Assembly: GCA_009927165.1 (NCBI GenBank)
Contig: RFNO01000053.1
Span: forward strand, 16,143 to 80,142
DNA: 64,000 nt
Reading direction: 5' to 3'
From: Pseudomonadota bacterium
GTDB lineage: Bacteria; Bdellovibrionota; FAC87; UBA2466
Shown: positions 18,786-60,496 of the stretch, piece by piece
How positions within the stretch are numbered: the first letter of the stretch is position 1
Layout: the number at the start of each line of letters is the position of its first letter
The notes under the pieces: model-generated
Database searches by the model: none
What the model was told of the DNA's origin: nothing
Seen by the model: the letters and a program-made list of their open reading frames with translations, nothing else
Position numbers and translations under genes: made by a program

Positions 18786-20693
18786 ATGGAAAATACTCTT
18801 TTTGTTTTTTACGATTGCCCTGATATTAAGGCGATTTCGTCCAAGTTTGTTGCTCACTCTGTGCTTGCCCACAGTCCTGACCAGCTTTTAGGAGCGATAC
18901 AGAAAGCCCATCAAGAACGCCTTCGCATTGCGTTCTTTGTAACAGAACAAGACTGCCACCGAATTAGTCAGCTCATCGACGCTAGAGCTGCCAAAGAGGA
19001 TTGCCCCAGTTTTGGTTATATCGTCCTCAGTGATAATCCGAAAAATTTCTTTCAAAATCCTCGAGTGCTCTCCCGGTTAATAGACATCATCGAGCCAAAA
19101 AAGATAAAAAAAGAGGCAGAAACCTTTTTCATGAAAATTTGTAAGTTGATTGCTCATCTTTCTGAGATTAATACCACTCGGATCAATTCAACGATGCTTC
19201 AAAAACTCAACGAAATTTTTATTGAATTATCAGCTGAAAGAAATCCCGAAAAATTATTGGTCACGATTCTTTCCAAAGGAATTGAACTTTCAGGCGCTCA
19301 GGGGGGAACGCTTTTTGTGTTGAATGAGGTTGATGGAGATTTGGAATTTCGCTTTAGGATCACTGATTCCGGAGGAAAAGAAATCAACTTTGAGGAAGTA
19401 AATTCCCGAGTTCAGGAAAATAGTGTTTGTGGCTATGTCGCTCTTACTGGAAAAAGTACCAATGTAACTTCTACTCAAGAGACAAAGTTATCTCAAGGGT
19501 TTCCCATGTTTTCGTCGCTTGACCATGTGCAACCCCAAGGAAATCAATCGTTGTTGACAGTTCCTCTACGAGACAGTCGTGGCGATTGTCGAGGAGTCTT
19601 GCAACTGGCCAACAAAGTAAAGTCTAATGGGGAATACGCACCTTTTGATTTAGAAGATGAAAGTTTAGTGAAGTCGTTTAGCACCCAAGCAGCAATTTGT
19701 CTCGAGACGAGTGATGTCTATCGAGATGTTCAAAAGCTTTTCGAAGGTTTTGTTAAAGCTTCTATTACTGCAATCGAGTCCAGAGATCCTAGTACGGGTG
19801 GACATTCGGAACGAGTGGCATCGATGTGTGTAGCTCTCGCTCGAGCTACCACGGAAGTTAGCACAGGAATTTATCGTTCAGTAAAATTCAAAGAGGACGA
19901 AATAAAGGAGTTGGAATACGCTGCTCTTCTCCATGATTTCGGAAAAATTGGTGTCAAAGAACAAGTGTTAGTCAAAGCAAAGAAGCTATATACCCATCAA
20001 TTAGAATCGATAAAAGAACGAATAAATACTTGTAAAGCTGCCGCAAAGATTTGTTTTCTTGAACAGCGTATTCATTTGGGAGAATCCCATCGTCAACAAC
20101 TGGAGCACCAGTACCACGAGAGAGTTCGTCAAGTGGATAACTACTGGAATCTTATTATTGCCGCCAATGAGCCTAATATTTTAAAGAAAGAAAACGAGCA
20201 AATACTGGACCAGATACGCCATGAGCAGCTCTTGCTTCCGGATGGTACACAAGTATCTTTACTCACAGAAGAAGAGTATCTTGCGTTGTCGGTTCAACAG
20301 GGTTCACTCACTGATAGTGAAAGAGAAGAAATTGAGTCACATGTTCGCCATACGTACCAATTTTTAAAAAATATTCCTTGGACTCGCGACTTTAAAAACC
20401 TCACCGAAATCGCTTACTGCCATCACGAAAAACTTGATGGTACTGGATATCCTCGAGGTTTGACGAGCCATGAAATACCCCTGCAATCCAAAATCATGAC
20501 CATCGCAGATATTTTTGACGCACTCACTGCAGCTGACCGTTGGTATAAAGAGGCAGTACCCATCGAACGCGCACTAGAGATATTGGGACAGGAAGTTAAA
20601 GAAGGTAAGCTTGATCCGGTACTATCCGAAATCTTTATCGAAAAAAAGATTTACTCAACTGCCGTACTGCAGAAACTAGGCAAAGTTGCATAG
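18786..20693 (+). CDS. GAF domain / HD-GYP domain protein (probable c-di-GMP phosphodiesterase)
   Basis: HDFGKIGV (HD) and HHEKLDGTGYPRGL (GYP) motifs. Central GAF-like region. N-terminal ~120 aa of unknown fold. Confidence 0.75.
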   Translation: MENTLFVFYDCPDIKAISSKFVAHSVLAHSPDQLLGAIQKAHQERLRIAFFVTEQDCHRISQLIDARAAKEDCPSFGYIVLSDNPKNFFQNPRVLSRLIDIIEPKKIKKEAETFFMKICKLIAHLSEINTTRINSTMLQKLNEIFIELSAERNPEKLLVTILSKGIELSGAQGGTLFVLNEVDGDLEFRFRITDSGGKEINFEEVNSRVQENSVCGYVALTGKSTNVTSTQETKLSQGFPMFSSLDHVQPQGNQSLLTVPLRDSRGDCRGVLQLANKVKSNGEYAPFDLEDESLVKSFSTQAAICLETSDVYRDVQKLFEGFVKASITAIESRDPSTGGHSERVASMCVALARATTEVSTGIYRSVKFKEDEIKELEYAALLHDFGKIGVKEQVLVKAKKLYTHQLESIKERINTCKAAAKICFLEQRIHLGESHRQQLEHQYHERVRQVDNYWNLIIAANEPNILKKENEQILDQIRHEQLLLPDGTQVSLLTEEEYLALSVQQGSLTDSEREEIESHVRHTYQFLKNIPWTRDFKNLTEIAYCHHEKLDGTGYPRGLTSHEIPLQSKIMTIADIFDALTAADRWYKEAVPIERALEILGQEVKEGKLDPVLSEIFIEKKIYSTAVLQKLGKVA

Positions 20694-20755
20694 AGTTATA
20701 GGTTTGGTAAGTGGAAAAATTTTCCTACCTGCGGACAAAAGTTCCCGTCAATCCA

Positions 20756-20783
20756 TTGACAAAAAAATCAGTTGTCGTAATAT
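20756..20783 (+). promoter_or_regulatory. Sigma-70-type promoter candidate (TTGACA-N16-TAATAT) upstream of the FleQ-like EBP gene
   Basis: Near-consensus -35/-10 hexamers with 16-17 nt spacing, about 65 nt upstream of the ATG at 20849. Confidence 0.4.
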
Positions 20784-20848
20784 TAAAGGGTTCAGACCTC
20801 TTTTTCTAACGTTTCCAAAATAAATTTGCATCTTCGAAGAAAACAGAA

Positions 20849-22267
20849 TTGTTTCTGAACAATTTTTCTAACAATTTCAAGAAAAAGTCGGAGCAATCTG
20901 TGTCTATTCGTCGAATCTTGATTTGCGAAGGTGACTCTCAAATATCCAAAAGATATCGAGAGGTTTTAGAGGGTAATGGGTACTGGGTTCAAGAGAGTCC
21001 AGATATTGCTGAGGCAATCAGGTTGGCTACCAAGCAGACATTTCACCTCTGTCTCTGGGGATATCAGGATAGCGAGGGGTTAAACAAACTCCAAAGTTTT
21101 CGCGCTGAGCGTCCAGGTTGTGCCGTCGTTGTTCTAGGATCGGAAAACAGTCCTTCCTCTATTGTGAACTTGATGAGGGCGGGGGCTTCTGATTTTTGGG
21201 ATTCGAACCAAGAAATAGCCGGATTACTGACCGTTATTGAAGAGAATTTAGGGAGAATTATTTCCACTCCCCCTGATTTGAGCCAAAACGAGTTTTCCAT
21301 TCCCCAATTCGTGGGAAGACATCCTAAGATTCTTGAGATTTTCCAGCTCATTATGAGCATTAAAGATACGGACTCAAATGTACTCATTACCGGAGAGAGC
21401 GGAACTGGAAAAGAAGTCGTGGCCAGAGCTATTCACGATTTGAGCCCGAGAAAAAAACTACCCCTAATTGCCGTTAATTGTGGAGCGATACCGGCAACAC
21501 TTCTGGAAAGTGAGCTCTTCGGCCATATGAAGGGAGCCTTTACTGGGGCAACTCAAAACCGTATTGGGCGTTTTCAATTGGCTGGGCAGGGAACTTTATT
21601 TTTGGACGAAATCAGTGATCTGTCTTTGGATTTACAATCCAAAATTCTAAGAGCTATTCAGCAAAAAGTTTATGAACCTGTGGGAAGTGCTCACAGCCTG
21701 TATCTAAACGCCAGAATCATTGCAGCTTCCAATCAAAATCTTGAGACTGCAGTGGGTGAAAAGAGATTCAGAGAGGATCTTTATTATCGACTAAACGTGA
21801 TTCCTATTAATATCCCACCGCTTCGTGATAGGAAGTCAGATATTCCCCTTCTTGTTAAAGCCTTTACCGACAAATTTGCTAGTCAGTATGCGAGAGAAGT
21901 CACAGGGGTATCTGAAGACTCATTGAGAATTCTGATGCAGTACCATTGGCCAGGAAATATTCGTGAGCTAGAGAACTTAATCGAGCGAGTAGTAATCCTT
22001 AAAAGAGATAAGGGAATCATCGACGTTAAAGACTTGCCTATCGAGCATTTTAAACGGGTTACTTTGGATAGGTATATCAGTAGCGTGTCCCTTCCAGATA
22101 ATGGTTTGGACCTAAATGATGCTATCAACGATTTCGAAAATGAATTAATCATACAGGCACTTCAAAAGACACAGGGCAATAAAAACAAAGCTGCTTATCT
22201 TTTGAACTTGAATAGAACTACTTTAGTAGAGAAGTTAAAGAGAAAAGGTCTCAAACTCGCTTGTTAG
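20849..22267 (+). CDS. Sigma-54-dependent transcriptional activator with a degenerate (non-phosphorylatable) receiver-like N-domain, FleQ/FlrA-like
   Basis: AAA+ sigma-54 interaction motifs [29 protein letters not shown]. Fis-type HTH at the C-terminus. N-domain aligns to REC, but the phospho-acceptor Asp and conserved Lys positions are replaced. Confidence 0.7.
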
Positions 22268-25184: not shown

Positions 25185-25323
25185 TTATCGGAATGTTTTG
25201 ATGAGATTTACAGCATTGAAAAATGCTCAGATCGGAGCTTTGCGGCGAAGCCAAATAGTTGACGGTCTGACAAAATACTTGCTCATCCTGGGCAGGTAAC
25301 AGCAAAAAACAGAGCTGAAACTT

Positions 25324-25339
25324 CGGCACGTACTTTGCT
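25324..25339 (+). promoter_or_regulatory. Sigma-54 (-24/-12) promoter candidate cGGCAC-gtact-TTGCt
   Basis: 9/10 match to TGGCAC-N5-TTGC with correct GG-N10-GC spacing. Intergenic, oriented toward the TPR/EBP operon. Confidence 0.4.
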
Positions 25340-27713
25340 CTTTACTTTAAACGTGCACATTAAACTTCGCGTTAATTATTCAGTTCTTTACGTGTTGAGC
25401 TTCGTGTTTGCCCTGTCTGGACGCCCCGCAACAAATTTCTGGGAATTGAAAGATCTGGATCTCCCCATGCCATTTTGTGAAGGGGTGACCAATCTAGAGG
25501 TGGCCCCTACTTATTTCACAGAAATTGAAAATCAATTAGGCGGAACGCCAGAGTACAATGGCTTGATTCAAAGCTATCATCGCAAAGATTGGGAAAAGTT
25601 AGGCAATGAAATTGCAACTTTTCGCAGGGTATTTGAAACTTCACGACTTCAAGAAGCTGTTGATTTTCTGGAACTCCAGGCCCAATTAGACCAAATTCCA
25701 AATTCAGAGCCGAGTCAGATCAAAAAGTTCGAATCAAAGTTTAGAGAGATTTTACTCCTCTATCCCCATTCAACATTGGCACCTGTCCTATCAGCCTCTT
25801 TGGCGAGTTTCTATCTGAAAAATGGATCTTATGCGAAAGCCCTAGGGCTGTATCAAACAGGAAAGCAGGAGTATCCCTTTCACCCCAGCGCCTGTGTTTT
25901 TCTCCTCGGTAGTGCCGAGTCGCAGTATCTTCTTCACAACTACGAAGATGCCAAAAAAGGATTCAGCCAAGTTCTTCAAAAGTGCGATGCGGCTAGATTG
26001 CAAATGGGCTCTCGAATCAGACTCATCGATATCGACAGAGAATCGGGACAAGACCTCAAAAAAATAGAAAAAGCTTACGAGAAGATCCAAGTGAAAAATG
26101 GCCACTTAATTTCCCGATTCCACCCCGAGCTCCTATTCAATTTAGGAGAACTTAAATACCGTCAAGGAAATTATCCAAGCGCCTCCTTCTATTTCAACGA
26201 GTTTACAAAAGTAGAGGAGCATTTTTCCGAATGCCAAGCTCCCCTTCGGAAGCGACTAGCAGACTTGTCGGTAAAACGAAAAGATAAGCTTCCCGCAGTG
26301 ATTGGTAATTATTTAACCGTAAAAGAAAAATTCCCAAAAAGTGATTGGGGACACTTTTCGAAAGCCCACGCCTTGTTGATGGAATTTAAAGATCTGGACT
26401 CAGCTGAAATTGAGAGGCGTTTAACGGTAGTCGATGAAGAGCTGTTAGCAATTAAGGACGAAAAACTTCGTACGGTTGGTAACATAGAAAAGGGGTTATC
26501 CCTTCTTGAAGCAAGCAATGAAGAAGCTCTTGGTTACCTATCTAAATTGAATGAGCAGAATGGCTTTGATTTGAAGCAAGGAGAAGTGGGATCTTTCATT
26601 CGAGTGAACACGTTACAGGTCCTGGAAAAATTAGCTCGAACCCCGTCAACAGTTTCCCAAGCTGAACGAGATGAGAAGTTACTAGCCCCACTTGAGCATT
26701 CCTACAAAGAATGGTTTGAGGGCACACCCATGGCCAAAAAGGCGCAAAACCTTTACCGAGATCTCATCGTGCAGAGCGCTTTGGAAAATCTTGAGCAAAA
26801 AGGGTTGAAAAAGTCATTGGAGAAGTTAGAGCGCTGGCAGACTTCTTCATTATTTAATCAGCAAAAAGTAGAGTTAAGTACTAAAATGAAACTGGGCGAC
26901 TCTCTTGTCCGTTGGTGGTTTAGCGAAACCAATCGAGATGAGAAAAAATCAGCCGAACGTCTGCTCGATAAAAAAGAAGTCATATCTGCTTTGATTAGTC
27001 CGGAGTATGACCCACTCTGGTTACAGACCTACTTAACAGTAGAAAAACCGCTCGAATTAGAAGTGGCTCTTAAGGCCATGGAAAAACAGAGAAGTATTGC
27101 TTCTGCTTTTAAGCCTAAAGATGGCCTAATTTCCTCCTATCTGGCATTGATGATGGGTAGGGCTTTTCGCGAAGCAAAACAATACCAAAAAAGCGAAGAA
27201 TCGCTTTCAAAAATCACTCACCCCAAACTCAGTGCCCTAAAAAGGCTTGAACAAGTAAAAACTTTTTCGAGTGCGGGTCAGTTTGAAAAAGCCCTCAAAA
27301 TTGGTTTGAGAGGATTAGAAAAAGCAGACCTGGCCTCTTCTGGTGCCTATCTGGACTTAATGAAGCGATCCGTACTTGCCGGGAAAAAATGGGGTCTCTC
27401 GGAAGAAGTTTTAAAATCAGCTCAAAAAAAGGGATTAAAGGAAAAAGATTTAGCTCCTTTCTTAGCAATGTCGGCAAGAGCGGAGCTTGAAAAGTCGAAT
27501 TGTTCGCTATCTATTAAGCGTTATGAAGAGGCTATTAAGATTGCCCCTGATTCCCCTGAGAAATTAGAAAACCGTTTCTATCTGGGTAAGTGTCGGAGCA
27601 AAATGAAAGATACCAAAGGGGCCATCAAGGAGTGGAGAGAAATTGCTTCTCAAAAGGACGAGTTTTGGAGTCCGCTTGCTGAAAATGAAATCAAACTATT
27701 GGAGTCGCCATGA
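25335..27713 (+). CDS. Large TPR-repeat protein with N-terminal hydrophobic segment; the true start is probably downstream of the annotated 25335
   Basis: Multiple TPR-like helical repeats ([18 protein letters not shown]...). Stop overlaps the start of the downstream sigma-54 EBP (ATGA). Confidence 0.55.
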
Positions 27714-28660
27714 CAACGCTGAATTTTCATCACCGAAAGATGCTGATTGCTGATGAGTTGATGGAAAAGCTTTTGAAAACGTCTCGGAGAGCAGCAATGG
27801 CCGACTCTTCAGTCCTTCTCTGCGGAGAAAGTGGGACTGGCAAAGAATTAATTGCTCGTTATATCCACGAGATCAGCAACCGAAGGGAAATGCCATTTAT
27901 CAGTGTGAACTGTGCAGCTATTCCGGAGGGACTTATGGAAGCTGAGCTCTTTGGATATGAAAAGGGAGCTTTCACGGGTGCACTAGTACAAAGAATCGGA
28001 AAATTCGAACGGGCCCAAGGTGGAACACTTTTGTTAGATGAAGTCAGTGAAATGTCATTGCCCTTACAGGCCAAGTTGCTTCGGGTTTTGCAGGAATCGG
28101 AAATAGACCGATTAGGTGGTAAGGGGCCTATCCGAATTAACACAAGAATTATCGCAACCACGAACAAAGATCCTTTTGAATTGATCAGTAAAGGGTTGTT
28201 CCGGGAAGATTTATACTATCGCCTAAATGTATTTAGAATTGAATGCCATCCTCTGCGCGAAAGACGGGAAGCCATTAGAAAACTGTCTCAATTTTTTCTG
28301 GAGAATCTGAGGGAGCGATATGAGCTTCTCAATCAGACTTTCAGTGCCGAAGCCTTGGAAAAGTTAGACAAACATTCATGGCCTGGAAATATAAGAGAGT
28401 TGGCAAATGCCATTGAACGGACCGCCTTAATGACAGAAGAGGCACTCATCGGTCCTGAGCATATCAGTTTCTTACGGTCACACCCGCGCCCAGTTGAAAT
28501 GGAAACAGTGAGTGAAGAATCACTAGCTGCGTTGGAGAAAAGGCACATTGAAAAGATGCTGGAGAAGGTCGATGGAAATCGTACGGAAGCAGCCAGGAAA
28601 CTGGGGATAAGTGTAAGGACTCTGAGAAATAAGCTTAAGGAATATCAAGCTCCATCCTGA
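27710..28660 (+). CDS. Sigma-54-dependent transcriptional activator, activator-only (AAA+ plus Fis HTH, no receiver or sensor domain), PspF-like architecture
   Basis: [25 protein letters not shown]. 316 aa, starting directly in the AAA+ domain. C-terminal HTH. Confidence 0.8.
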
Positions 28661-28734: not shown

Positions 28735-28750
28735 TGGCCTTAAGTTTGCA
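28735..28750 (+). promoter_or_regulatory. Sigma-54 promoter TGGCCT-TAAGT-TTGCA upstream of flgB
   Basis: GG-N10-GC spacing and 8/10 core match plus A. 45 nt upstream of the flgB ATG, immediately downstream of the EBP gene. Confidence 0.55.
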
Positions 28751-28794: not shown

Positions 28795-29172
28795 ATGACA
28801 CTGTTCGATAAAACCATTGATACTTTATCAAAGTCTCTAGACCTGCATCTGCTTCGCCAATCAGTAATCAGTGACAATATTGCGAATGCGGAAACACCCG
28901 GGTTTAAAGCCAGAAAAGTCGAATTTGAAAGTGAACTTCAACGAGCTGTTGAAGCTAATGAGACTGGAGTTAGCGAACCGGCCGTATTGTCAGTTGAGGC
29001 AAATATTACTCAAGATCCCCACTCTGAATTGGGTCAGGATCTCAATACAGTAGATATGGATCGCGAGATGGCCGCAATGACGAAAAACGACATTCAGTAT
29101 TCCGCTAATACTCAAATGATTAACAAAAAGTTTACTTTTCTTAAGTATGCCATCGGGGAAGGACGTAACTAA
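28795..29172 (+). CDS. flgB: Flagellar basal-body rod protein FlgB
   Basis: ISDNIANAETPGFKARKVEFE rod-protein N-terminal motif. Confidence 0.85.
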   Translation: MTLFDKTIDTLSKSLDLHLLRQSVISDNIANAETPGFKARKVEFESELQRAVEANETGVSEPAVLSVEANITQDPHSELGQDLNTVDMDREMAAMTKNDIQYSANTQMINKKFTFLKYAIGEGRN

Positions 29173-29615
29173 TGGGTGATTTCTTTCAGTCTATTGATGT
29201 AAGCGCATCAGCTTTAAGTGCAGAACGAATGCGCATGAACACTACCTCAAGTAATTTAGCAAATGCCCAAACTACACGAACACCTGAAGGCGGACCTTAT
29301 CGCCGGAAAGATGTTGTTTTTGAAGCTGAAACGACCCGAAGTTTTGCTTCGGAATTAGCAGGGCAAATGAAAGAAGTTCCTCTACATCGAGTAAAAGTGA
29401 CAGATGTCGTTTCTGATCCGAATCCTCCCAAGTTAGTTTATCAACCCGGACATCCCGATGCCAATCCGGAAGGATTCGTTGCTTATCCTAATATAAATAC
29501 AATGGAAGAAATGGTGAATTTGATCACTGCGAGTCGAACTTATGAAGCCAACGTCACATCGATTAATGTGACCAAAGGCATGATGAATAAGGCCCTTGAA
29601 ATAGGGAGAAAATAA
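29172..29615 (+). CDS. flgC: Flagellar basal-body rod protein FlgC
   Basis: SASALSAERMRMNTTSSNLANAQTT motif. ~147 aa. Confidence 0.85.
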   Translation: MGDFFQSIDVSASALSAERMRMNTTSSNLANAQTTRTPEGGPYRRKDVVFEAETTRSFASELAGQMKEVPLHRVKVTDVVSDPNPPKLVYQPGHPDANPEGFVAYPNINTMEEMVNLITASRTYEANVTSINVTKGMMNKALEIGRK

Positions 29616-29618
29616 TAA

Positions 29619-29921
29619 ATGAATATCTCAAGTATTAGTCCCAATTTAATTCCTAATGAAGCTCCCCTTTCCTCAAGCCCCCCCACGCAAGAGGCAAAAG
29701 GAGAAACATTTACTGAGTTTTTAAGCCGTTCGATTGATCAAGTGAACGACCTTCTGGCAAATGCTGATAAAAGTGCCACTGATCTAGCAACTGGAAAATC
29801 TGAGAATCTACACGATGCCATGATCACTATGGAAAAAGCTGAAACAGCATTCAAGCTTTTGATGCAAGTTAGAAACAAAGTGATTGATGCTTATCAAGAA
29901 GTCATGCGGATGCAGGTTTGA
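29619..29921 (+). CDS. fliE: Flagellar hook-basal body complex protein FliE
   Basis: ~100 aa. FliE-like C-terminus and operon position. Confidence 0.75.
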   Translation: MNISSISPNLIPNEAPLSSSPPTQEAKGETFTEFLSRSIDQVNDLLANADKSATDLATGKSENLHDAMITMEKAETAFKLLMQVRNKVIDAYQEVMRMQV

Positions 29922-29943
29922 TTTTTAGCTATTTAGGAGCGAC

Positions 29944-31731
29944 ATGAACGAGACACTTCAAAGATGGCTTGAGACAGCTCAGTCGTATTTCGAGACTTTC
30001 TCAAGACAGAAGAAAATTCTGGTGGGCGTTACTGCTGCCCTAGTTGTGACTGGCTTGGTCGCACTTACCGTAATGCTTCGACGTGATCCCATGCAGGTTC
30101 TTTACTCGGAACTTCGACCTGAAGAAACTAAAAGTGTTTCTAAAAAGCTCAGCGAACAAAACGTTCCTTACCAAGTCAGTGAAGATGGGGCTACTATTTC
30201 AGTGCCCTCCAGCCAAGTGTATCGAGCTCGAATGGAGTTGGCTAAAGAGGGATTGCCTGGCCAGGATCTCGTGGGATTTGAAAAATTTGATGCTTCAACA
30301 ATTGGGATGTCAAGTTACGTGCAGCGGATTCAGTATGTACGGGCTGTTCAGGGTGAATTGACTCGCTCTATCCAGAGATTGGCTTCCGTTAAGACCGCTA
30401 GAGTTCACATTAGTGTTCCGCCTAAAAAAACTTTTCTTGAAGAAGAAGATCCTCCAAAAGCATCCGTGGTCTTAGAGTTGCGAGCGGGAATGACTCCCTC
30501 AAAGCAAGAAACGGCTGGGATCGCTCATTTAGTGGCCAGTGCCGTTGAAGGTCTAAAAGTTAATCAAATCACAATTGTAGATACTAAAGGAAATTTCCTG
30601 CATCGCCCAGAAGACAGTCTAACTCCAGCTATTCCTTCAGCACTGTTAGAGATGCAGCGCGCCATTGAAGTGGAGTACGAGAGACGTATTGAAGAAATGC
30701 TCACGCCAGTGGTTGGTTTTGGTAAAGTACGTGCCAAAGTAACTGCAGAAATTGATCCGTCGAGAGTAAATACAACCGAAGAGACATTTGACTCCGAAAA
30801 AGCAGTCCCCCGGAGTGTGACAAAAATGGATGAAAGCAATTCCGGTTCCCGCCCTAACCCCATGGGAATTCCTGGCAGTCGATCAAACTTGCCCGGTACT
30901 GAAGTCAACAATCCCCCGTCACCCGTTGCAACCAGTTCAAATGAAAAAAATTCCAGCAACACTACCTATGCCATTCCGAGAAAAGTTCAAGTCGTCGATA
31001 AGCCCAGTGGGTCTATCAAGAGGTTAACGATAGCGGTGGTGGTTGACGGTTATTACAATAAAGCTCCTAACGCTACAACTGAGACCTTTGCTCCCCGAAA
31101 TGAGGAAGAGCTCCGTCGAATTCAGGATCTGGTTGCAAATTCGGTTGGTTTTGATTCCGAGCGGAGAGACAGCATCACAGTAAGCTCCATGCCGTTTAAC
31201 ACTAATGAAATCAAGGACACCGATGAAAAGCAGACTCCGGCTGTCACATGGCAAAACTTAGCCCCGCAAATGCTTAGAAATGGTCTTGTAGCCCTTGTTT
31301 TCCTAGCATTCTTCTTCTTAGTGATGCGGCCTTTCTTAAAATGGATGAGCAGTTCCGAATCAGCAAACAATAGGAACAAAGACGGAACTCTGGTTCCTCG
31401 AACAGTGGGTGAGATAGAAGCAGCGGTAAAGGCTGCCAGCGAATCGGGAGTTCAAGCCGATCAGGTTGCCGAAGCTTTGATGGCACAGGCCAATGATGCC
31501 TCAGGCAGCGCAGGAACCAACCCAGAAATTGCCGCACAAATGGCAGCCAACGATGAAGATGATAACGTGATTCGGGGAGTCTTTGGTGATACTGCTGAGA
31601 AAAAAGAGGAGCGTCAGCTGAAAAAGCTGATCGTCGAGCAGATAGAAAAATCACCCAAGAAGAGCTTCAGAATTTTACAGGATTGGATCGAAGAAGATGA
31701 TGAAATGAAGGCCTCTGAGGTAAGTGCATGA
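29944..31731 (+). CDS. fliF: Flagellar M-ring protein FliF
   Basis: N-terminal TM, conserved FliF/YscJ region (GQDLVGFEKF...RIQYVRAVQGELTRSI), second TM near the C-terminus. Confidence 0.85.
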   Translation: MNETLQRWLETAQSYFETFSRQKKILVGVTAALVVTGLVALTVMLRRDPMQVLYSELRPEETKSVSKKLSEQNVPYQVSEDGATISVPSSQVYRARMELAKEGLPGQDLVGFEKFDASTIGMSSYVQRIQYVRAVQGELTRSIQRLASVKTARVHISVPPKKTFLEEEDPPKASVVLELRAGMTPSKQETAGIAHLVASAVEGLKVNQITIVDTKGNFLHRPEDSLTPAIPSALLEMQRAIEVEYERRIEEMLTPVVGFGKVRAKVTAEIDPSRVNTTEETFDSEKAVPRSVTKMDESNSGSRPNPMGIPGSRSNLPGTEVNNPPSPVATSSNEKNSSNTTYAIPRKVQVVDKPSGSIKRLTIAVVVDGYYNKAPNATTETFAPRNEEELRRIQDLVANSVGFDSERRDSITVSSMPFNTNEIKDTDEKQTPAVTWQNLAPQMLRNGLVALVFLAFFFLVMRPFLKWMSSSESANNRNKDGTLVPRTVGEIEAAVKAASESGVQADQVAEALMAQANDASGSAGTNPEIAAQMAANDEDDNVIRGVFGDTAEKKEERQLKKLIVEQIEKSPKKSFRILQDWIEEDDEMKASEVSA

Positions 31732-32750
31732 AGGAAATGAGAAACGGTCAATTAACTGGGATTGAGAAAATCGCAGTGCTAATGAATGTCATTGGCAAAG
31801 AAAAGTCTGGTGAGCTGTTGAAGCAAATGAAAGACTCAGATGTTCGCCGACTGCTGAAAGTGATGAGCAGCATGAAGAAGGCACCCGTGCAGCTTATCAA
31901 TGATGTACTTAAAGAGTACCTTTATAAATTAAGTGAAAAAGATGAAATTATTTTCGAAGAAAACCTTTCTGAACCAGAATTGATAAGTCAGGTTCTTGGC
32001 TCAGAACGCGCAAAGCAAATTTTCGGAGGCAACAGAGCGGTCAATCTGGTTGAGCGAAAGAGTCTGACCGTTTTGGAAACGGTAGATCCAAAGACTCTTG
32101 CAGAGTTTCTTGTGGATGAGCATCCTCAAACAATTGCATTAATTATCGCCCACATGGATGTGGAACAACAAATCACCATGATTAAAGCTCTTCCCGATAA
32201 TCTCAGGCCAGAAATTGTCACTCGAATGGCTACCCTTGAATATGTATCTCCTGAGAAAATTGACGAATTAGACGAAGTTCTTAAAAGAGATCTCATTGGC
32301 AAGGCAGTAGGAAACAAGAATCAATTTGGCGGAGTGCCAGCTATTGCGGATCTCATTAATAATCTCGATAAAAGAACAATGACTTCTTTAATGACTCGCC
32401 TTGAAGATAAAGATCCAATACTGGCTGTAGAGATAAAGCAACATATCTTTAGTTTTACGGATGTTATTAAGATCGATAATCGAGGCCTCCAATTGGTCCT
32501 TAGGGACGTTCCAAATCAAACTCTGCTTTTGGCCCTGAAAAATGCGCCTGAAGAACTAAGAGAAAAGCTTTATGAAGCAATGTCTGAGCGGGCAGCAGCC
32601 ATGTTGAAAGATGACTTAGCAGCGTTAGGTCCACAGCGAGTATCAGACGTTGAAAAGGCTCAGAAAGAAATTGTGACTGTAGTCAAACGACTAGAAAAAG
32701 AAGGGAAAATTATCATTGGCGTGGGTGAAGAGTCAGATATGGTCCCCTGA
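31728..32750 (+). CDS. fliG: Flagellar motor switch protein FliG
   Basis: LTGIEKIAVLMNVIGKEKSGELLKQM start and conserved FliG middle and C domains. Confidence 0.85.
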   Translation: MKEMRNGQLTGIEKIAVLMNVIGKEKSGELLKQMKDSDVRRLLKVMSSMKKAPVQLINDVLKEYLYKLSEKDEIIFEENLSEPELISQVLGSERAKQIFGGNRAVNLVERKSLTVLETVDPKTLAEFLVDEHPQTIALIIAHMDVEQQITMIKALPDNLRPEIVTRMATLEYVSPEKIDELDEVLKRDLIGKAVGNKNQFGGVPAIADLINNLDKRTMTSLMTRLEDKDPILAVEIKQHIFSFTDVIKIDNRGLQLVLRDVPNQTLLLALKNAPEELREKLYEAMSERAAAMLKDDLAALGPQRVSDVEKAQKEIVTVVKRLEKEGKIIIGVGEESDMVP

Positions 32751-33573
32751 CCAAATAAGGGAACAAGGGGAGTTTGTTCGTTTTCGGGCAGCCGATGTGC
32801 GCACTTTGCCTCAGTTTTCGGAGGCTGTAGCTCAGAAGGCTTCTGCTTGGAGCGGTGAAGTGTCCCAATCAACTGGCGAACATTTTCGTATGGCTGGCGA
32901 GTATTGGGATGGCCTCATGAATGATCCCATGTTCCGAGAGCGTTTTGATGCTTTGGTCGAGAAAGAAGTAAGGTCTCGCCTGTTGAAACGTTTGGAACAT
33001 CATGAAACTGAAGTTTTACCTGAAATTTCAAAAGAAGCCATGAAGCAAGGATATCAAGAGGGAAAAAATTTAGCCCATGAGCAGCTCGAGGAAGAAATCA
33101 ATAAGATCGAACAAAATCTGACTTATACTTGGCAGGAAAAAGTTGGCGAACTAGAGAAAAGCAAAACTGAAGCCTCCGCGCTATTAGATTCTCTTGTTGC
33201 TGAATGGAAAAATCAGCGTGAATCCCTTTTGCACAGCCATGAGCGCGAATGGTGCCAAGCTATGTTGCATCTCATGAAAAGATTCCAGATGGAAAAGAGT
33301 GAGAGTTATGGAAAAGCTCTTGAAATTTGGATGGCTGAAGCGATACCGGAATTTGTAACCAAGAGCCCTGTCACTGTTTGTGTGCCGGACTATGAATGGG
33401 AAAAATACGCCGATTGTCTTGGAAAAAAAGAAAGTGAAGGAAAATGGCATCTGGTGCGAGACTCAAAATTAATGCCTGGACAAATTCGATTTGAAGCTGG
33501 GGCCGGCGGGGCGATTTTCGATTCCGGAAATAATTACCAAAAATTAGTGGATTGGTTGGAAACAATCAGATGA
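32716..33573 (+). CDS. fliH: Flagellar assembly/export protein FliH (start uncertain)
   Basis: Position between fliG and fliI. Coiled-coil. C-terminal ...GGAIFDSGNNYQKLVDWLE resembles the FliH/ATP-synthase-b-like C-domain. Confidence 0.55.
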   Translation: MAWVKSQIWSPDQIREQGEFVRFRAADVRTLPQFSEAVAQKASAWSGEVSQSTGEHFRMAGEYWDGLMNDPMFRERFDALVEKEVRSRLLKRLEHHETEVLPEISKEAMKQGYQEGKNLAHEQLEEEINKIEQNLTYTWQEKVGELEKSKTEASALLDSLVAEWKNQRESLLHSHEREWCQAMLHLMKRFQMEKSESYGKALEIWMAEAIPEFVTKSPVTVCVPDYEWEKYADCLGKKESEGKWHLVRDSKLMPGQIRFEAGAGGAIFDSGNNYQKLVDWLETIR

Positions 33574-34870
33574 ATCTAGAACAATTCTGCAAACAAATCC
33601 GAGATGAGTCGTTTGTAACATTTTGTGGACGTGTGACGAAAGTTAGAAGAGATTCGGTTCGGGTCTTCGTACCTAACGCAAAAGTGGGCTCGGTGGTTAT
33701 GGTTCAGGGGAGACAGAAAGAAATTCCGTTAGAAATCGTTAGTTTAGATCCAGAAGGTCATGTCGCAATGCCTTTGGATGAATTAAACAGTGTTCAGTTA
33801 GGTGACCTCGTTACACTTCGCGAAGAACAAGCAGTTATCCCCGTTGGAAAGGAACTGCTTGGCCAAGTCGTTGATTCACTCTGTAGGCCACTTGAGACAA
33901 ATAGGAAGCTCAATTTACCAGATTCCATTTCGCTTTATGGTGAATACTTAAACCCAATGGATCGAACGATTATTCGGGAACCTATCGACTTGGGCGTGAG
34001 GACAATAAACGCCCTTCTTACTTGTGGTCTTGGCCAAAGAGCAGGAATTTTCGCTGGTTCAGGAGTGGGTAAAAGTGTTCTGTTAGGGATGATGGCTAGA
34101 TTTACTTCTGCAGATGTTGTGGTTGTGGGACTTATCGGAGAACGAGGCAAAGAGGTACGAGAGTTTATAGAGCACGAGTTGGGAGAAGAAGGCAGAAAAA
34201 AAAGTGTGACTGTCGTCGAAACAGCTGAGAAATCTCCCGTCAGGCGTGTCCGTGGAGCATATGTTAGTACTGCTATAGCGGAATATTTTCGAAAACAAGG
34301 TCTACAAGTGTTGCTCTTAATGGATTCTCTTACTCGCTTTGCGATGGCACAGCGAGAAATCGGTATGGCGGCGGGCGAGCCACCCACCAGTAAAGGTTAT
34401 ACGCCTAGTGTATTTTCGGGAATTTCCCGACTGGTTGAGCGTGCGGGAAATTTCGGGGCCGAAGGCAGCATCACTGGTCTTTATACAGTTTTGGTTGAGG
34501 GAGATGACTTAGAGGATCCGGTTGCAGACAGTGCCGGTCAATCTTGGACGGCCACTTGGTATTATCCCGAAAAATAGCAAACAAAGGACAATATCCAGCA
34601 ATCGATATCTTGCAGAGTGTGAGCCGAGTAATGGATCAAGTTACCGAAAAGACTCACTCCACATCGGCACGAAGGGTAAAGCAAATCTTAGCTCGCTTTC
34701 AGGATAACGAAGATGCAATTAACTTAGGTCTCTATAATAGAGGGAGTGACCAGACAATTGACGAAGCGATTGAGAAAGAACCTATTATCCTCGATTTCCT
34801 CAAACAAGGAAGAGACGAGCACTCATCATTTTTTGATTCGAAAAGTAAACTCTTGGAAATTGCTAGATGA
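33552..34870 (+). CDS. fliI: Flagellum-specific ATPase FliI, interrupted by a -1 frameshift near 34533-34537 (reading frame continues in ORF 34544..34870); possible pseudogene or sequencing error
   Basis: Walker A GSGVGKS and Walker B LLLMDSLTRFA in the first ORF. The FliI C-terminus DGHLVLSRKIANKGQYPAIDILQSVSR is in the next frame. A single missing C in gcc(c)gg would restore ...VADSARSILDGH... Confidence 0.8.
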
Positions 34871-35301
34871 GATTTAAATTCCGGCTCGAAAAAATTGCGA
34901 ATTATTTTACGCAGAAGGAATTTGCAAAAAAAATTGAGTTAGCAAAAGTGTTGAGAGATTTGGCTCAGAGCAAAAGCCTAAAAGAATCAATTGAAAGAGA
35001 AAACCTAGGGTTGTTAAAAAACCAAAGCCAAAAATCACAAGTAGGAGTCGAGTGGTTAAAGCTCTTCATGGATCGTATCGACCACAACATCATTTCACTT
35101 GAGAAATTAAAAGTTGTGATTGGAGAACAGCAAACAGTGGTTGATCTAAAAAGAAAAGAGCTCAACATTCTGAGCGCTAAAAAGAAAGCTCTCGAAACCA
35201 TGCGCGATAAAAAGATGGCGGAATTCAAAGTGATTGCAAATCGAAACGCACAGAAGAAGTTGGACGAAAGCTTTGAGCTATTAAAGACAGAAAAAAAATG
35301 A
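34867..35301 (+). CDS. fliJ: Flagellar export protein FliJ
   Basis: MRFKFRLEKI... N-terminus typical of FliJ. All-coiled-coil, ~144 aa, directly after fliI. Confidence 0.6.
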   Translation: MRFKFRLEKIANYFTQKEFAKKIELAKVLRDLAQSKSLKESIERENLGLLKNQSQKSQVGVEWLKLFMDRIDHNIISLEKLKVVIGEQQTVVDLKRKELNILSAKKKALETMRDKKMAEFKVIANRNAQKKLDESFELLKTEKK

Positions 35302-35915
35302 ACAGACTTTTTACATTTATCCTATTATGTTTCGCTGGATTACTTCCCGCTCATCTCAGTGCAGATGTATCAAAAGTGGAAGAAATCGGGAATCAGAAAA
35401 AACTTCTCGAACAGAGAGAGCAGGAACTCAATGCTCGGGAGGCGACACTAAAGGAGCAGATTGCAAGCCATGTTCGCGTCATACAGGACCTTCAGGAAAG
35501 ATTTAGCAAGGACAAGCGCGCCATGGAGGAGAAGCTGAATCAGCGAGAAGTTGAGTTGAATAAAAAGCTGATCGAAAAAGAGCAGGAGCTCAAAAAAAAG
35601 ACGATTGAACTTGAGAGTGTACGAGACCATCGCGCCAAAAGTTATCGACTGATCTACGAAAAAATGGAGCCAAAAAATGCGGCAAAGATTCTGGAGGATA
35701 TCGATGCTTCACTTGCATTGCAGATTTTAGCCGACATGAGGGAACAAAAGGCCGCTGAAATTTTATCTAAAATGAACCCAGAGAAGGCGAGAAGTATTAC
35801 TGAGTACGGGTTTGGAAAAAGACAGTTGGCCTCGCCAGCTGGAGGCAACCAAAAGATTTCTCAAAAGGTCAATGAAGTAAACGAGAAGAGTCCGATAGCT
35901 CCCATCGGAGAGTAG
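35298..35915 (+). CDS. Flagellar protein with MgtE_N-like domain (FlbB/MotE/YlxF-like)
   Basis: Signal peptide, coiled coil, then PKNAAKILEDIDASLALQILADMREQKAAEILSKMNPEKARSI (MgtE N-terminal-like). Same position as ylxF/flbB in Firmicute and spirochaete fla operons. Confidence 0.55.
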   Translation: MNRLFTFILLCFAGLLPAHLSADVSKVEEIGNQKKLLEQREQELNAREATLKEQIASHVRVIQDLQERFSKDKRAMEEKLNQREVELNKKLIEKEQELKKKTIELESVRDHRAKSYRLIYEKMEPKNAAKILEDIDASLALQILADMREQKAAEILSKMNPEKARSITEYGFGKRQLASPAGGNQKISQKVNEVNEKSPIAPIGE

Positions 35916-35945
35916 TCCAAAAATCAAAGAAAGGAGGTAAAAACA

Positions 35946-37244
35946 ATGCTACATAATATTTATTCAAGCAGTCTTAATCTGTCTGCTTTGTCCGTTATGG
36001 GTGGTGAAAGTCTGGGCTTGCCTGAGACAGGAGAATTCGATTTTTTGAATTATCTTTTGGGCCTTCAGGTAACGAGTTCGGAAAGCTCAACTGAATTAGA
36101 TGGATTGATGTCTGGATTGAACGCTAAGAATGGTCAGGAGTCTAAGCTTGATTCTAATGAAGCCCTTTTGGAACTTTTTGATCGAAAGGCTTCAAGAGAT
36201 TCGTCGGTGCTTATTGGGCAACCGATGATGGGACCGGTTCAGCCTCAAGTTGCTCCCTTAACTGTTCAAACAGTTCAAAAAATGGAATCTGCTGAAAGCA
36301 CAATGGGCCGTCTTGATGACAAGATTCCCGTTATTAAATCTTATAAAGAAGATAAACAGCAGGTTTTGGGTCAAAATGTACTTGAAGATCCTATCGGTCA
36401 GCTTGCCTTCAACAAGGCGATGTATGATCAGAACCGGAGCTCAGTAAATAGCGGTCCAAGATCCAAGGACGCCGATCCACAGGTTGTGTTCGACCAAAAG
36501 GAAAGAATGATTCAATCCTATATGGGCTCGAAAAAACAACCAGAGGCTAATGCCGATAGTCCAGAGTTAGCCATGGGAAAAGTGACGATTAACGAGACTC
36601 GGTTCGACAATGAAGAAGCAGACACCATCGACGGCCCTAAGCGACAAACTCATCGATCAGAAGAGTTTGATGTCGTTTCTGATACATCGGCACCTATGCT
36701 ACAAAATAACGTAGTTACGGTGAACTCGAAGGTCACAGGGCTGGAGAAAGTGAGCCATCATACGGTTCCTGAGCTCTTCCAAAAAGTCGAATCAATGGTC
36801 CATCACGGCGGAGGAAAACTGACGGTTACTTTGACACCACCCGATTTGGGACAGGTCGAGATACACGTCAGTACCAAAGGCAAGAATGTTGAGGTTTCTG
36901 TGAAATCAGATAACGATTTTGCAAAAGCCGCCATTGAAAGCCAAGTCGCTGATCTCCAGCAGTCTTTGCAGAATCAGGATCTTAATTTGAGTAAAATTGA
37001 GGTCCACGTCAGCAGAGAAATGGAGCCATCATTTTTAGAAAATCAATATGCTCAGTTTTCTGGAAATGGAAGTCTGTACCAGCAGTCACAAAGCTCGCGT
37101 CAGGATTCAGCAAAGAATCCCTGGCAAGTGAATCACCTGGATAGTTCTCATCCACGGAATCGGATGACTACCACATCAGCTGTTTCGACAGCTGCTTTGC
37201 ATGGGGTTAACCAAGGAACTGGACGAGTTGATATCCGCATCTAG
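35946..37244 (+). CDS. fliK: Flagellar hook-length control protein FliK
   Basis: Low-complexity N-terminal region and conserved C-terminal Flg_hook domain (GGGKLTVTLTPPDLGQVEIHVS...). Confidence 0.7.
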   Translation: MLHNIYSSSLNLSALSVMGGESLGLPETGEFDFLNYLLGLQVTSSESSTELDGLMSGLNAKNGQESKLDSNEALLELFDRKASRDSSVLIGQPMMGPVQPQVAPLTVQTVQKMESAESTMGRLDDKIPVIKSYKEDKQQVLGQNVLEDPIGQLAFNKAMYDQNRSSVNSGPRSKDADPQVVFDQKERMIQSYMGSKKQPEANADSPELAMGKVTINETRFDNEEADTIDGPKRQTHRSEEFDVVSDTSAPMLQNNVVTVNSKVTGLEKVSHHTVPELFQKVESMVHHGGGKLTVTLTPPDLGQVEIHVSTKGKNVEVSVKSDNDFAKAAIESQVADLQQSLQNQDLNLSKIEVHVSREMEPSFLENQYAQFSGNGSLYQQSQSSRQDSAKNPWQVNHLDSSHPRNRMTTTSAVSTAALHGVNQGTGRVDIRI

Positions 37245-37253
37245 AGAGAAACC

Positions 37254-38213
37254 ATGAACGAATTATCTGCTGCTTTGCCAAGTAAGCTCACCGAGATGCC
37301 TGCGGAAAGATCTAAACCCAAGAACACTTTGGGTAAGGATGATTTTCTCAAGCTTCTCATGGCGCAGCTGAATAATCAGGATCCCCTTAAGCCAATGGAA
37401 CACCAGGAGTTCTCAGCTCAATTGGCACAATTCGGATCCTTGGAGCAGTTACAAAATATCCACAAGGGGATTGAGAATCTTCAAGGGGGTATGGGTAACG
37501 AGTCCAAGCTTTCGGCAATTGGCATGATTGGAAAGCAAGTTCATGCCAATGGTAACGAGGTGAATCTGGTTGAAGGTCAGGCCATTAATCTTACTTTTTC
37601 AAAAAAGGAGGGGATTAATCCTGTGCAAGCACAGATCTATTCGGAATCTGGAAAAGTGGTACGTGAACTGGATATCGATCCAAGAACTAAAAATGGTGAA
37701 ATTAGCTGGGATGGAAAAGATCAAGAAGGAAAAGCACTCCCGTCAGGAAAATACACGTTTAGAGTGCAAGGAGTTGGCTCATCGGGCCAAGCCGAAGAGC
37801 TGGGAGCAGAGCTCTCTGGACGTGTGACGGCAGTTGAAATGAACGGGAATAATCCCGTGCTTGTAGTTCAAACTGCCTCGGGAACTTCCAAACTTGAACT
37901 TAATAAAGTTAATACAGTTACTCAGGATTCAGGTTCGAACTCCAAAGAAAGTTTGAGCCCGAAGCTTGATAAAAGTAAAGCAAGTGAAGCTAAAACCATT
38001 GCTAACAATCTGAAGGGGCTTTCTTCAGCGGAAAACACAAATGAATCGGAAGGAACCACCGCAGTGAAATCGGCAAGTAACAGCATACCTGTTGATATTT
38101 CTGAGGTGGTTAATGTCGATTCGAGTGAAAATGAAAGTGAAGAAGGAATTCCTTGGGAAGACCAGTGGCGAGGCTTTCCTGCTTTTGCTTCTCCAAAGGA
38201 TCTCAGACCATGA
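37254..38213 (+). CDS. flgD: Flagellar hook capping/assembly protein FlgD, with a long Ser/Glu-rich C-terminal extension
   Basis: KDDFLKLLMAQLNNQDPLKPMEHQEF FlgD N-motif and the hook-cap domain. 319 aa versus the typical 140-230. Confidence 0.8.
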   Translation: MNELSAALPSKLTEMPAERSKPKNTLGKDDFLKLLMAQLNNQDPLKPMEHQEFSAQLAQFGSLEQLQNIHKGIENLQGGMGNESKLSAIGMIGKQVHANGNEVNLVEGQAINLTFSKKEGINPVQAQIYSESGKVVRELDIDPRTKNGEISWDGKDQEGKALPSGKYTFRVQGVGSSGQAEELGAELSGRVTAVEMNGNNPVLVVQTASGTSKLELNKVNTVTQDSGSNSKESLSPKLDKSKASEAKTIANNLKGLSSAENTNESEGTTAVKSASNSIPVDISEVVNVDSSENESEEGIPWEDQWRGFPAFASPKDLRP

Positions 38214-38608
38214 GCATTCAAGATCTCTATAGAGCTGGGAATTTTTCGATAAATCCTTCTGGAGTAGGTTCGATTGGTGATCGACCGTCAATCGGTAGCA
38301 CCAAAGCTCCTACCAATCCGGATGAGTTTCAAAAGGTTCTTCGACAAGAAGAAGGAAAAATCAGCATGTCGCAACATGCGGAAACACGCATTCGTTCTCG
38401 TGAAATTCCGTGGAGTGCGGCAATGGAAAAACGGGTAATGGGTGGCATCGAAGCTCTTGAAGCCAAGGGCAGCCGAGAAGCGCTGATTCTCGCTGATGAT
38501 GTCGCTTTTATTGCCAATATCCGGTCGAAAACCATTGTAACGGCGATGGATCGAACGCAACTAAAAGAACGAGTTTTCACAAATATTGATAGCGCCGTTC
38601 TAGTCTAG
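38210..38608 (+). CDS. Small conserved-position flagellar operon protein of unknown function (between flgD and flgE)
   Basis: ATG overlapping the flgD stop (ATGA). 132 aa, no TM. Possibly related to the 'flagellar operon protein' family found between flgD and flgE in Firmicutes; not verifiable here. Confidence 0.4.
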   Translation: MSIQDLYRAGNFSINPSGVGSIGDRPSIGSTKAPTNPDEFQKVLRQEEGKISMSQHAETRIRSREIPWSAAMEKRVMGGIEALEAKGSREALILADDVAFIANIRSKTIVTAMDRTQLKERVFTNIDSAVLV

Positions 38609-38637
38609 CTGAGGCTGCCACCTCAGTTTTAACAAAA
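38609..38637 (+). terminator. Weak hairpin plus T-tract (ctgagg-ctgcca-cctcag-tttt) between the small ORF and flgE; possible attenuator or processing site
   Basis: 6-bp stem followed by TTTT. Low stability. Confidence 0.25.
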
Positions 38638-38710
38638 ACTCCCAAAGCTGGCCCGTGTTTTCGGTGCTTCCACACCTAAAACGGAAGCTTTGGATTATCT
38701 AGGAGGAAAC

Positions 38711-60307: not shown

Positions 60308-60496
60308 GCGTCTCTCCTTGTACCACTCGTTGCTGAGCCCGCCGGGAACTCAGCTCCACCCAAGTTGAGATTGCAAAGCGTATGCCCCAAGTCTACCGGA
60401 ATTATCAGTGCGTAATGATTGTAAGATGGCCCGACTTAGTGAAGCAGGAGTGACGTTTTAGGGCGCCATCGGGGCCGAAGCGGTCACTGATTAAGG

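Follow-up and report, generated by a model that had tools for sequence, protein, structure and literature searches.

A sigma-54-dependent activator with a degenerate receiver beside an HD-GYP phosphodiesterase: a candidate top-tier flagellar regulator of Bdellovibrionota

Does a sigma-54-dependent activator that has lost the phosphorylation site of its receiver, and whose gene stands next to that of a cyclic di-GMP (c-di-GMP) phosphodiesterase, take its signal from c-di-GMP in the manner of FleQ of Pseudomonas aeruginosa and FlrA of Vibrio cholerae? The question is raised by a 64-kb stretch of the Bdellovibrionota contig RFNO01000053.1 (assembly GCA_009927165.1), which is called the window in the following, has a G+C content of about 43%, and supplies the numbering of all coordinates. 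The window carries, side by side, a gene for a protein with a GAF and an HD-GYP domain and a gene for an enhancer-binding protein, named EBP1; a second activator gene (EBP2) and an early flagellar gene cluster lie further downstream (Table 1). In a preliminary description, made from the letters of the window, the pair had been taken for the c-di-GMP-sensing top tier of a flagellar cascade. The reading that we prefer, at a probability of roughly 0.55, is that EBP1 is a phosphorylation-independent class-I (top-tier) flagellar sigma-54 activator of the Bdellovibrionota lineage, which would act on flgB through the operon of a tetratricopeptide-repeat (TPR) gene and EBP2.

The HD-GYP product and EBP1 were each 100% identical to proteins from metagenome-assembled genomes. 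The exact match of the HD-GYP protein and a 100%-identical 364-residue fragment of EBP1 were both labelled 'Proteobacteria bacterium', and the relatives of both proteins were labelled Bdellovibrionaceae, Bdellovibrionales, Pseudobdellovibrionaceae or Bdellovibrionota. To our knowledge, the control of flagellar genes in Bdellovibrio-like predators has been little studied; a full-text literature search on Bdellovibrio, sigma-54, c-di-GMP and flagella returned nothing beyond a comparative-genomics study of Peredibacter.

EBP1 and its relation to FleQ

The activator gene had been placed at 20849, where the open reading frame (ORF) finder lists EBP1 from a TTG codon (472 residues). The activator ORF was recovered, and its start was revised: since more than 100 close relatives of EBP1 are 452-455 residues long and a GGAG stands six bases upstream of a GTG at 20900, this GTG was taken as the probable start, and TTG 20849 is very probably not the start codon. 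Residues of EBP1 are therefore counted from the GTG. In the Pfam search, the product of 20849-22267 matched Sigma54_activat (PF00158, 4e-67), AAA_lid_14 and HTH_8 (5e-13), together with a weak Response_reg match (35.6 bits against a cut-off of 30.2). The Walker A, Walker B and GAFTGA motifs were intact and were invariant across the family, which is represented here by an alignment of 40 orthologs with 51-78% identity. EBP1 thus carries the features by which sigma-54 enhancer-binding proteins are recognised, that is, an AAA+ domain with these three motifs and a helix-turn-helix (HTH) domain. In one locus (L001, 12113-13473, the same contig region as L038), the EBP1 ortholog was called as two genes of 149 and 304 residues, which indicates a frameshift, most likely an assembly artefact.

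EBP1 could be aligned from residue 4-6 onwards over the full length of NtrC1 (1ny5) and NtrC4 of Aquifex aeolicus, receiver included. Unlike in these proteins, the acceptor Asp, the Thr/Ser and the Lys of the receiver are all replaced in EBP1, by G54 (HLCLWG), G80 and S102 (DFWDS), respectively, and the acidic pair EDD reads EGD. The earlier statement that the acceptor Asp and the conserved Lys are substituted was thus borne out, and the NtrC1 alignment, in which an intact Asp/Thr/Lys triad was looked for, revealed none. In the family, the acceptor column holds Pro, Ser, Ala, Gly and other residues, and Asp in only one of the 40 orthologs; 28 orthologs have Ser in the Thr/Ser column and 26 have Arg or Lys in the Lys column, so the EBP1 of the window is more degenerate than the family consensus. 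Since the Asp is absent from 39 of the 40 orthologs, its loss should be ancestral to the family. Judged from these residues, EBP1 is a working activator that is independent of phosphorylation.

A degenerate receiver had been regarded as the hallmark of the FleQ/FlrA type, and a comparison with the FleQ receiver had been proposed. This comparison did not bear out the assignment. The FleQ domain PF06490 gave no match at E <= 1 with the EBP1 of the window and did not figure among the 25 families that most of the 40 members matched; the receiver family PF00072 was matched by 37 of them, and the pseudo-receiver TadZ_N by 12. When a profile of the EBP1 N-domain was compared with the Protein Data Bank (PDB), it matched a Thermotoga receiver (5e-13), the NtrC1 receiver (1e-10), CheY and the FleR receiver, and the FleQ receiver was absent from the best 60 matches. 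Membership of the EBP1 N-domain in the FleQ N-domain family was therefore rejected. EBP1 shares with FleQ and FlrA a non-phosphorylatable receiver-like N-domain, an AAA+ domain with GAFTGA and a Fis-type HTH, but the N-domain itself is an NtrC/CheY-type receiver.

The second property of FleQ that can be traced in an alignment is the c-di-GMP pocket. R144, R185, N186, E330 and R334 are the residues named as critical in the account of PMC8335546 (after Matsuyama et al. 2016), and a cryo-EM study of FleQ adds R138 and R151 (PMC10723142). The residues were mapped by an HMMER alignment to 8p53, whose chain numbering is offset by two, as checked on K180, T149, R260 and R300. The five residues fell on P135, R176, A177, A321 and K325 of EBP1, and R151 fell on P142; only R185 of the five is kept in the window. 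Across the 40 orthologs, the R144 position is Pro in 31, the N186 position is Ala in 35 and Ser in five, and the E330 position is variable (Ala, Ser, Thr, Asn and others). The R185 position is Arg in 31 and otherwise Gln, Lys, Cys or Ser, and the R334 position is Lys in 22 and Arg in 18. The arginines still present are general ATP-site residues of these ATPases (PMC10723142). The FleQ c-di-GMP site thus appears to be absent from EBP1 and unconserved in its family, and the proposal that EBP1 senses c-di-GMP is not supported by the alignments. By the two tests that define the FleQ family, the PF06490 domain and the c-di-GMP pocket, EBP1 is to be placed outside that family, as far as sequence can tell.

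Nevertheless, the remainder of EBP1 is close to FleQ. In the PDB, the AAA+ domain (272 bits) and the HTH were both matched best by FleQ, with Fis not far off over the C-terminal 70 residues (31 against 29 bits). The C-terminal 56 residues align to FleQ (LPxxGLDL...RTTLVEK), and the recognition helix reads NRTTLVEK in EBP1 and RRTTLVEK in FleQ (RRTTLVEKMRKYG in FleQ), so that RTTLVEK is shared. A large protein search with the 70-residue HTH returned 10 fragments only and was uninformative.

The EBP1 promoter and the predicted flagellar cascade

The TTGACA-N16-TAATAT promoter that had been reported before the EBP1 gene was found again and is backed by conservation. Promoter-like sites as a class are not enriched in this region (nine found against 8.0 expected); the promoter was taken as real because the -35/-10 pair is conserved upstream of orthologs, and not from the scan statistics. 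As shown in Table 1, its -35 hexamer is the right arm of a perfect 14-bp palindrome, GTCAATCCATTGAC (GTCAAT-CC-ATTGAC). When the upstream regions of 32 orthologous EBP1 genes were compared, GTCAA-N4-TTGAC with at most one mismatch was present in 30. In about 28 of the 32, the box is followed by an A, which completes TTGACA, and by TAnAnT 16-17 bp later. The distance from the beginning of the box to the start codon is 110-200 bp in nearly all of these and 387 bp in L079; the other two box matches lie at 343 and 401 bp and could have arisen by chance. Moreover, the box stays with EBP1 where 2-6 kb of genes intervenes after the HD-GYP gene (L003, L008, L009, L011, L016 and L032).

The palindrome fits the FleQ consensus of P. 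aeruginosa, GTCaNTAAAtTGAC as quoted in two papers (PMC6120874; PMC8125075), at 11 of 13 specified positions, and its GTCA-N6-TGAC core has the geometry of that consensus. At a sigma-70 promoter, FleQ has been described to repress as well as to activate (PMC3424551).

Other elements were noticed in the course of these searches. A box match at 55550 lies inside an alpha/beta-hydrolase gene and was judged to be chance. The only other exact GTCA-N6-TGAC of the window (51978-51991) is probably chance as well; it encodes PDTVITLT inside a flbD/swrD-like ORF of about 68 residues (VIRITKFDG...PDTVITLT..., 51868-52074, minus strand), which lies just upstream of motA (51066-51890) and motB (50263-51054). 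A 13-bp palindrome, GGAAAAATTTTCC (20713-20725), follows right after the stop codon of the HD-GYP gene and is kept in the closest loci (L005, L006, L037 and L077); a protein may bind there, or the palindrome may fold into a weak hairpin. In one subgroup of the orthologous loci (L024, L030, L034 and L078), though not in the window, a second conserved element, TTTTGACTGTCA (TGAC-T-GTCA, with the half-sites inside-out), stands about 40-50 bp before the start of EBP1.

The relation of helix and box could be followed into other lineages. A metagenome scan with the HTH alignment yielded four orthologous loci and 76 loci of other NRTTLVEK activator families. In the 76 non-orthologous loci (593 kb), GTCA-N6-TGAC occurred 33 times, and 19 of these boxes stood no more than 350 bp from an end of an activator gene (49 kb in total), where 1.27 were predicted from the rest (Poisson, about 2e-16). 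The genes behind the boxes encode a FliA-like sigma factor (L111), a MinD/FlhG/FleN-like ATPase directly downstream of the activator (L117), a second receiver-containing activator (L114, L121, L128 and L153), a large TPR protein (L127 and L132) or FlgB (L149). In many lineages, therefore, the NRTTLVEK helix goes together with the box and with flagellar genes. In about 40 other NRTTLVEK proteins with a receiver, the Asp, Thr and Lys were kept in 38, 34 and 40, respectively, suggesting that the Bdellovibrionota family lost phosphorylation secondarily, in parallel to FleQ.

A scan of the window for sigma-54 -24/-12 sites gave 16 sites against 7.1 in shuffled sequences, and two of them are well placed: CGGCACGTACTTTGCT, before the TPR gene, and TGGCCTTAAGTTTGCA, before flgB. 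The downstream promoters and the box were compared in five loci, the window and L001, L077, L078 and L079. Since CGGCACGTACTTTGCT overlaps the TTG start listed by the ORF finder, the true TPR start codon should lie further downstream. In all five loci, a box with one mismatch (two in L001; GCCAAATAGTTGAC in the window) precedes the sigma-54 match by 74-84 bp, counted from start to start, a spacing that is usual for activator sites. No FleQ-type box was found near the flgB promoter, and no conserved sigma-54 promoter was found upstream of the HD-GYP gene or of EBP1 in the loci compared. The order TPR-EBP2-flgB is the same in the four other loci, and in further lineages, too, a TPR gene is found behind NRTTLVEK-type activators. 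The best NCBIfam match of EBP2 was FlbD, below the cut-off. FleR and FlrC have phosphorylated receivers; the second-tier EBP2 differs in being without one. Of the earlier proposal of a top tier with c-di-GMP input, the top-tier place was thus sustained by the helix, the box and the conserved sigma-54 promoters leading to EBP2 and flgB, and the c-di-GMP input was not.

The wiring that we propose would run as follows. EBP1 would be transcribed from its own sigma-70 promoter and would bind GTCAATCCATTGAC over its own -35 hexamer, which would probably limit its synthesis. It would further bind the degenerate box at 25250 and activate the sigma-54 promoter behind it, turning on the TPR gene and EBP2, and the receiver-less, FlbD-like EBP2 would in turn fire the sigma-54 promoter before flgB and the early flagellar genes. 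EBP1, like FleQ and FlrA, would thereby stand at the top of a two-activator sigma-54 cascade.

In the early flagellar cluster, fliI (33552-34870) is frameshifted near 34520-34545, which splits it into ORFs of 33552-34577 and 34544-34870 and reflects an assembly error or a pseudogene. A further sigma-54-like site, GGGCATACGCTTTGCA (60372-60387, minus strand), lies 65 bp upstream of a VWA-domain gene (59069-60307), which is followed by a gene for a Ser/Thr kinase with an FHA domain (57624-59033).

Table 1. Coordinates of the HD-GYP/EBP1 locus and of the predicted lower tiers in the window
Feature	Coordinates	Strand	Remarks
HD-GYP gene	18786..20693	+	635 residues; cryptic receiver-fold, GAF and HD-GYP domains
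Receiver-like (beta-alpha)5 fold of the HD-GYP protein	residues 1-108 (18786-19109)	+	
GAF domain of the HD-GYP protein	about residues 135-330 (19188-19775)	+	
HD-GYP domain	residues 331-635	+	includes the helical-hairpin insert, residues 403-505 (19992-20300)
Palindrome GTCAATCCATTGAC, 14 bp	20747..20760	.	right arm is the -35 hexamer; FleQ-box type, candidate EBP1 operator
Sigma-70-type promoter of EBP1, TTGACA-N16-TAATAT	20756..20783	+	best match in the region; conserved in orthologs
EBP1, sigma-54 activator, 455 residues	20900..22267	+	GTG start, GGAG at 20890-20893
EBP1 domains	pseudo-receiver about 1-120; AAA+ about 136-385; Fis-type HTH about 410-450 (residues)	+	helix NRTTLVEK
Degenerate box GCCAAATAGTTGAC	25250..25263	.	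one mismatch from GTCAA-N4-TTGAC; candidate upstream activating site for EBP1
Sigma-54 promoter CGGCACGTACTTTGCT for TPR-EBP2	25324..25339	+	CGGCAYG-N4-TTGCT conserved in L001, L077, L078 and L079
TPR-repeat gene	25335..27713	+	start codon uncertain; 4-base overlap with EBP2
EBP2, 316 residues, AAA+ plus HTH, receiver-less	27710..28660	+	recognition helix unlike that of EBP1
Sigma-54 promoter TGGCCTTAAGTTTGCA	28735..28750	+	ends 45 bp before flgB; conserved in L001 and L077-L079
Early flagellar cluster	28795..39988	+	flgB, flgC, fliE, fliF, fliG, fliH candidate, fliI (frameshifted), fliK, flgD, flgE

The HD-GYP phosphodiesterase and its pairing with EBP1

The neighbour of EBP1 had been described as a GAF plus HD-GYP protein with an intact catalytic signature, that is, a c-di-GMP hydrolase, and this description was confirmed at the level of the residues. 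The 635-residue product matched the Pfam families GAF (8e-12), HD (3e-11) and HD_5 (2e-33). Conservation was judged over 40 orthologs: the HD pair (H383 D384) and HHEKLDGTGYP (546-556) were invariant or nearly so, and the metal ligands H340, H383, D384, H519, H546, H547, E548 and D575, the GYP motif (G554-Y555-P556) and the RxxK motif (R585-W-Y-K588) were all invariant. RxxK is the guanine-recognition motif of the c-di-GMP type, and the cyclic GMP-AMP (cGAMP)-specific enzymes PmxA and Bd2325, the latter from Bdellovibrio, share the HD-GYP fold but carry RxxQ or RxxN (10.1101/600031; 10.1101/2021.11.05.467447). Since RxxK rather than RxxQ or RxxN is invariant here, c-di-GMP is the expected substrate, and the protein looks like an active, c-di-GMP-specific enzyme. 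A cGAMP-specific phosphodiesterase, an idea taken from the V-cGAP3 match and from Bd2325, was rejected on the same motif.

Among solved structures, PmGH of Persephonella marina (PDB 4mcw) was the closest relative in sequence and fold (1e-27) and V-cGAP3 was the second (2e-25). The window protein has the GAF-HD-GYP order and the HD, HHE, GYP and RxxK motifs in common with PmGH and differs from it in three respects. An invariant Ser336 stands where PmGH has Glu185 (DPSTGGH against DPETQNH), a residue that binds the third metal of PmGH and correlates with hydrolysis through to GMP; in place of the trinuclear centre of PmGH, a binuclear one is therefore predicted, with pGpG as the expected product. 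Residues 403-505 form, in the model, a helical hairpin of about 100 residues with a small sheet at the position of the KPG substrate loop of PmGH, to which both flanks of the insert align. This insert is common to GAF-HD-GYP homologs of Riflebacteria, Acidobacteria, Nannocystis, Spirochaetota and others, which are 36-43% identical and have no N-domain, and it appears to mark an HD-GYP subfamily, one not found in the published HD-GYP survey. Finally, an N-terminal domain is added to the PmGH architecture. AlphaFold gave a mean predicted local distance difference test score (pLDDT) of 79.6 for the full-length protein, and a pLDDT of 84.6 with a predicted template modelling score (pTM) of 0.78 for residues 1-112; both models showed the N-terminal beta1-alpha1...beta5-alpha5 fold. 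Among the homologs, this N-domain was confined to Bdellovibrionota.

The GAF domain resembled the GAF domains of PDE5, PDE2, PDE6, CyaB2 and Lcd1 in sequence and fold matches. N276, K277, F287, D291 and E292 were invariant or nearly so, and we take N276-K277...F287-x3-D291-E292 to be the NKFDE signature (NK-Xn-F-X3-DE) of cyclic-nucleotide-binding GAF domains. The HD-GYP enzyme would then probably be gated both by a cyclic nucleotide at this domain and by the cryptic receiver fold at its N-terminus. That c-di-GMP hydrolysis can be gated by cyclic nucleotides has precedents in Tlr0485 of Thermosynechococcus, a cyclic AMP (cAMP)-activated GAF-HD-GYP enzyme (10.1101/2021.11.05.467447), and in Bd1971 of Bdellovibrio, a cAMP-sensing EAL phosphodiesterase (PMC6717892); the domain architecture of both differs from that of the window protein.

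How firmly the enzyme and EBP1 belong together was judged from 36 Bdellovibrionota loci found through the HD-GYP protein, 31 of which were informative. EBP1 followed directly downstream (gap <0.9 kb) in 16 loci, followed after 2-6.4 kb of unrelated genes in nine, was downstream but inverted in one, and was not within about 6 kb downstream in five. The gene order carAB-greA-recG...HD-GYP-EBP1, with convergent mlaDFE and with TPR-EBP2-flgB, is kept across the lineage, and the adjacency of HD-GYP and EBP1 alone therefore says little; in L078, the pair survives a changed upstream context. Beside 31 GAF-HD-GYP homologs from outside Bdellovibrionota, no orthologous activator was found. The N-domains of the two proteins gave an hhalign probability of only 43% with 12% identity, and a recent common origin of both was rejected on that ground. 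The two genes are separate transcription units and not an operon. Thus, the adjacency noted in the preliminary description is real, but the link drawn from it is weak, since the pairing is part of a lineage-wide gene order and is easily broken. A functional link is possible; because EBP1 is without the FleQ pocket, any influence of the HD-GYP enzyme on it would be indirect or by an undescribed binding mode. In three acidobacterial GAF-HD-GYP loci (L045, L047 and L048), an unrelated sigma-54 activator (26-37% identity to EBP1) lies 4-5 kb away, an arrangement that may be coincidence or lineage-specific.

Alternative readings and significance

Several observations weigh against the cascade EBP1, TPR-EBP2, flgB as we read it. 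The box has been assigned to EBP1 by association and by analogy with FleQ. One-mismatch boxes are at chance level window-wide (four found against 2.9 expected), and only the conserved position argues for a function of the box at 25250. Because this box is flanked by the mla operon (minus strand) and the TPR gene (plus strand), which are read away from each other, it could equally serve mla, either besides the TPR gene or in its place. No fleN (MinD/FleN-like), flhF, rpoN or fliA gene was found in the 64-kb window, so that EBP1, unlike FleQ, has no FleN partner gene in view. In L080, HD-GYP-EBP1-mla is kept but the next 10 kb or so downstream holds no flagellar cluster, and the proximity of EBP1 to flagellar genes is thus not universal. 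As for the gating step, the cyclic-nucleotide ligand of the GAF domain is suggested by a sequence motif. L080 and the promoter region that the 25250 box shares between mla and the TPR gene would also suit an EBP1 that is not flagellar and controls other genes, such as distant targets or the mla lipid-transport operon with its divergent promoter, with the flagellar proximity as inherited gene order, and so would the pairing of EBP1 with a convergent mlaD, which is the most constant feature of the neighbourhood. This we consider quite improbable, since activators with the same helix precede flagellar genes in many unrelated loci and the box keeps a fixed, normal activator-site spacing to the sigma-54 match.

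The remaining readings give the phosphodiesterase a part in the switch. EBP1 could be a c-di-GMP receptor like FleQ and FlrA, with the adjoining HD-GYP protein setting the local c-di-GMP level and so gating the top of the flagellar cascade; an enzyme that looks active and c-di-GMP-specific, a FleQ-like DNA-binding domain, a pair that holds together in L078, and genes that are adjacent in 16 of the 31 informative loci and no more than about 6.4 kb apart in a further 10 are consistent with it. We nevertheless hold it to be unlikely, because the FleQ pocket residues are largely replaced in EBP1 and the positions are unconserved across the orthologs, the genes are separate units often parted by 2-6.4 kb, and the homologs outside Bdellovibrionota have no such activator beside them. 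With the pocket absent and the pairing a matter of shared gene order, the step of c-di-GMP input remains a guess. The HD-GYP protein might instead bind EBP1 through the degenerate receiver-fold N-domains, as a partner switch or anti-activator, and control its oligomerisation apart from bulk c-di-GMP or deliver local signalling. A non-canonical receiver fold stands at the start of both proteins, the HD-GYP N-domain has the same Bdellovibrionota range as the gene pairing, and receiver domains commonly dimerise. In FleQ, dimerisation of the receiver domain is needed (PMC10723142). The likeness of the two N-domains is distant, however, and the adjacency is often interrupted, which makes this the most doubtful of the readings. 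Taken more broadly, as either a coupled receiver-fold pair or an EBP1 that binds c-di-GMP at a site other than that of FleQ, a cyclic-nucleotide-gated phosphodiesterase that directly switches a master flagellar activator is a rather unlikely arrangement. The phosphorylation-independent flagellar activator at the head of TPR-EBP2 and flgB is the reading that we prefer.

On that reading, flagellar synthesis in this lineage would be wired from a sigma-70 promoter with an auto-operator through EBP1 to a sigma-54 TPR-EBP2 operon and from there to a sigma-54 flgB operon. EBP1 would have lost its phospho-acceptor independently of FleQ and without the FleQ pocket, and a degenerate receiver together with a neighbouring phosphodiesterase is therefore no proof of c-di-GMP sensing. 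If the phosphodiesterase did switch EBP1 directly, this would be a new wiring of a second messenger to sigma-54 transcription. Furthermore, the FleQ-type helix and GTCA-N6-TGAC occur together in many flagellar activators, including ordinary phosphorylatable ones, and this helix-box rule could help to predict flagellar regulons in uncultured bacteria, among them Bdellovibrio-like predators, for which motility matters in finding prey.

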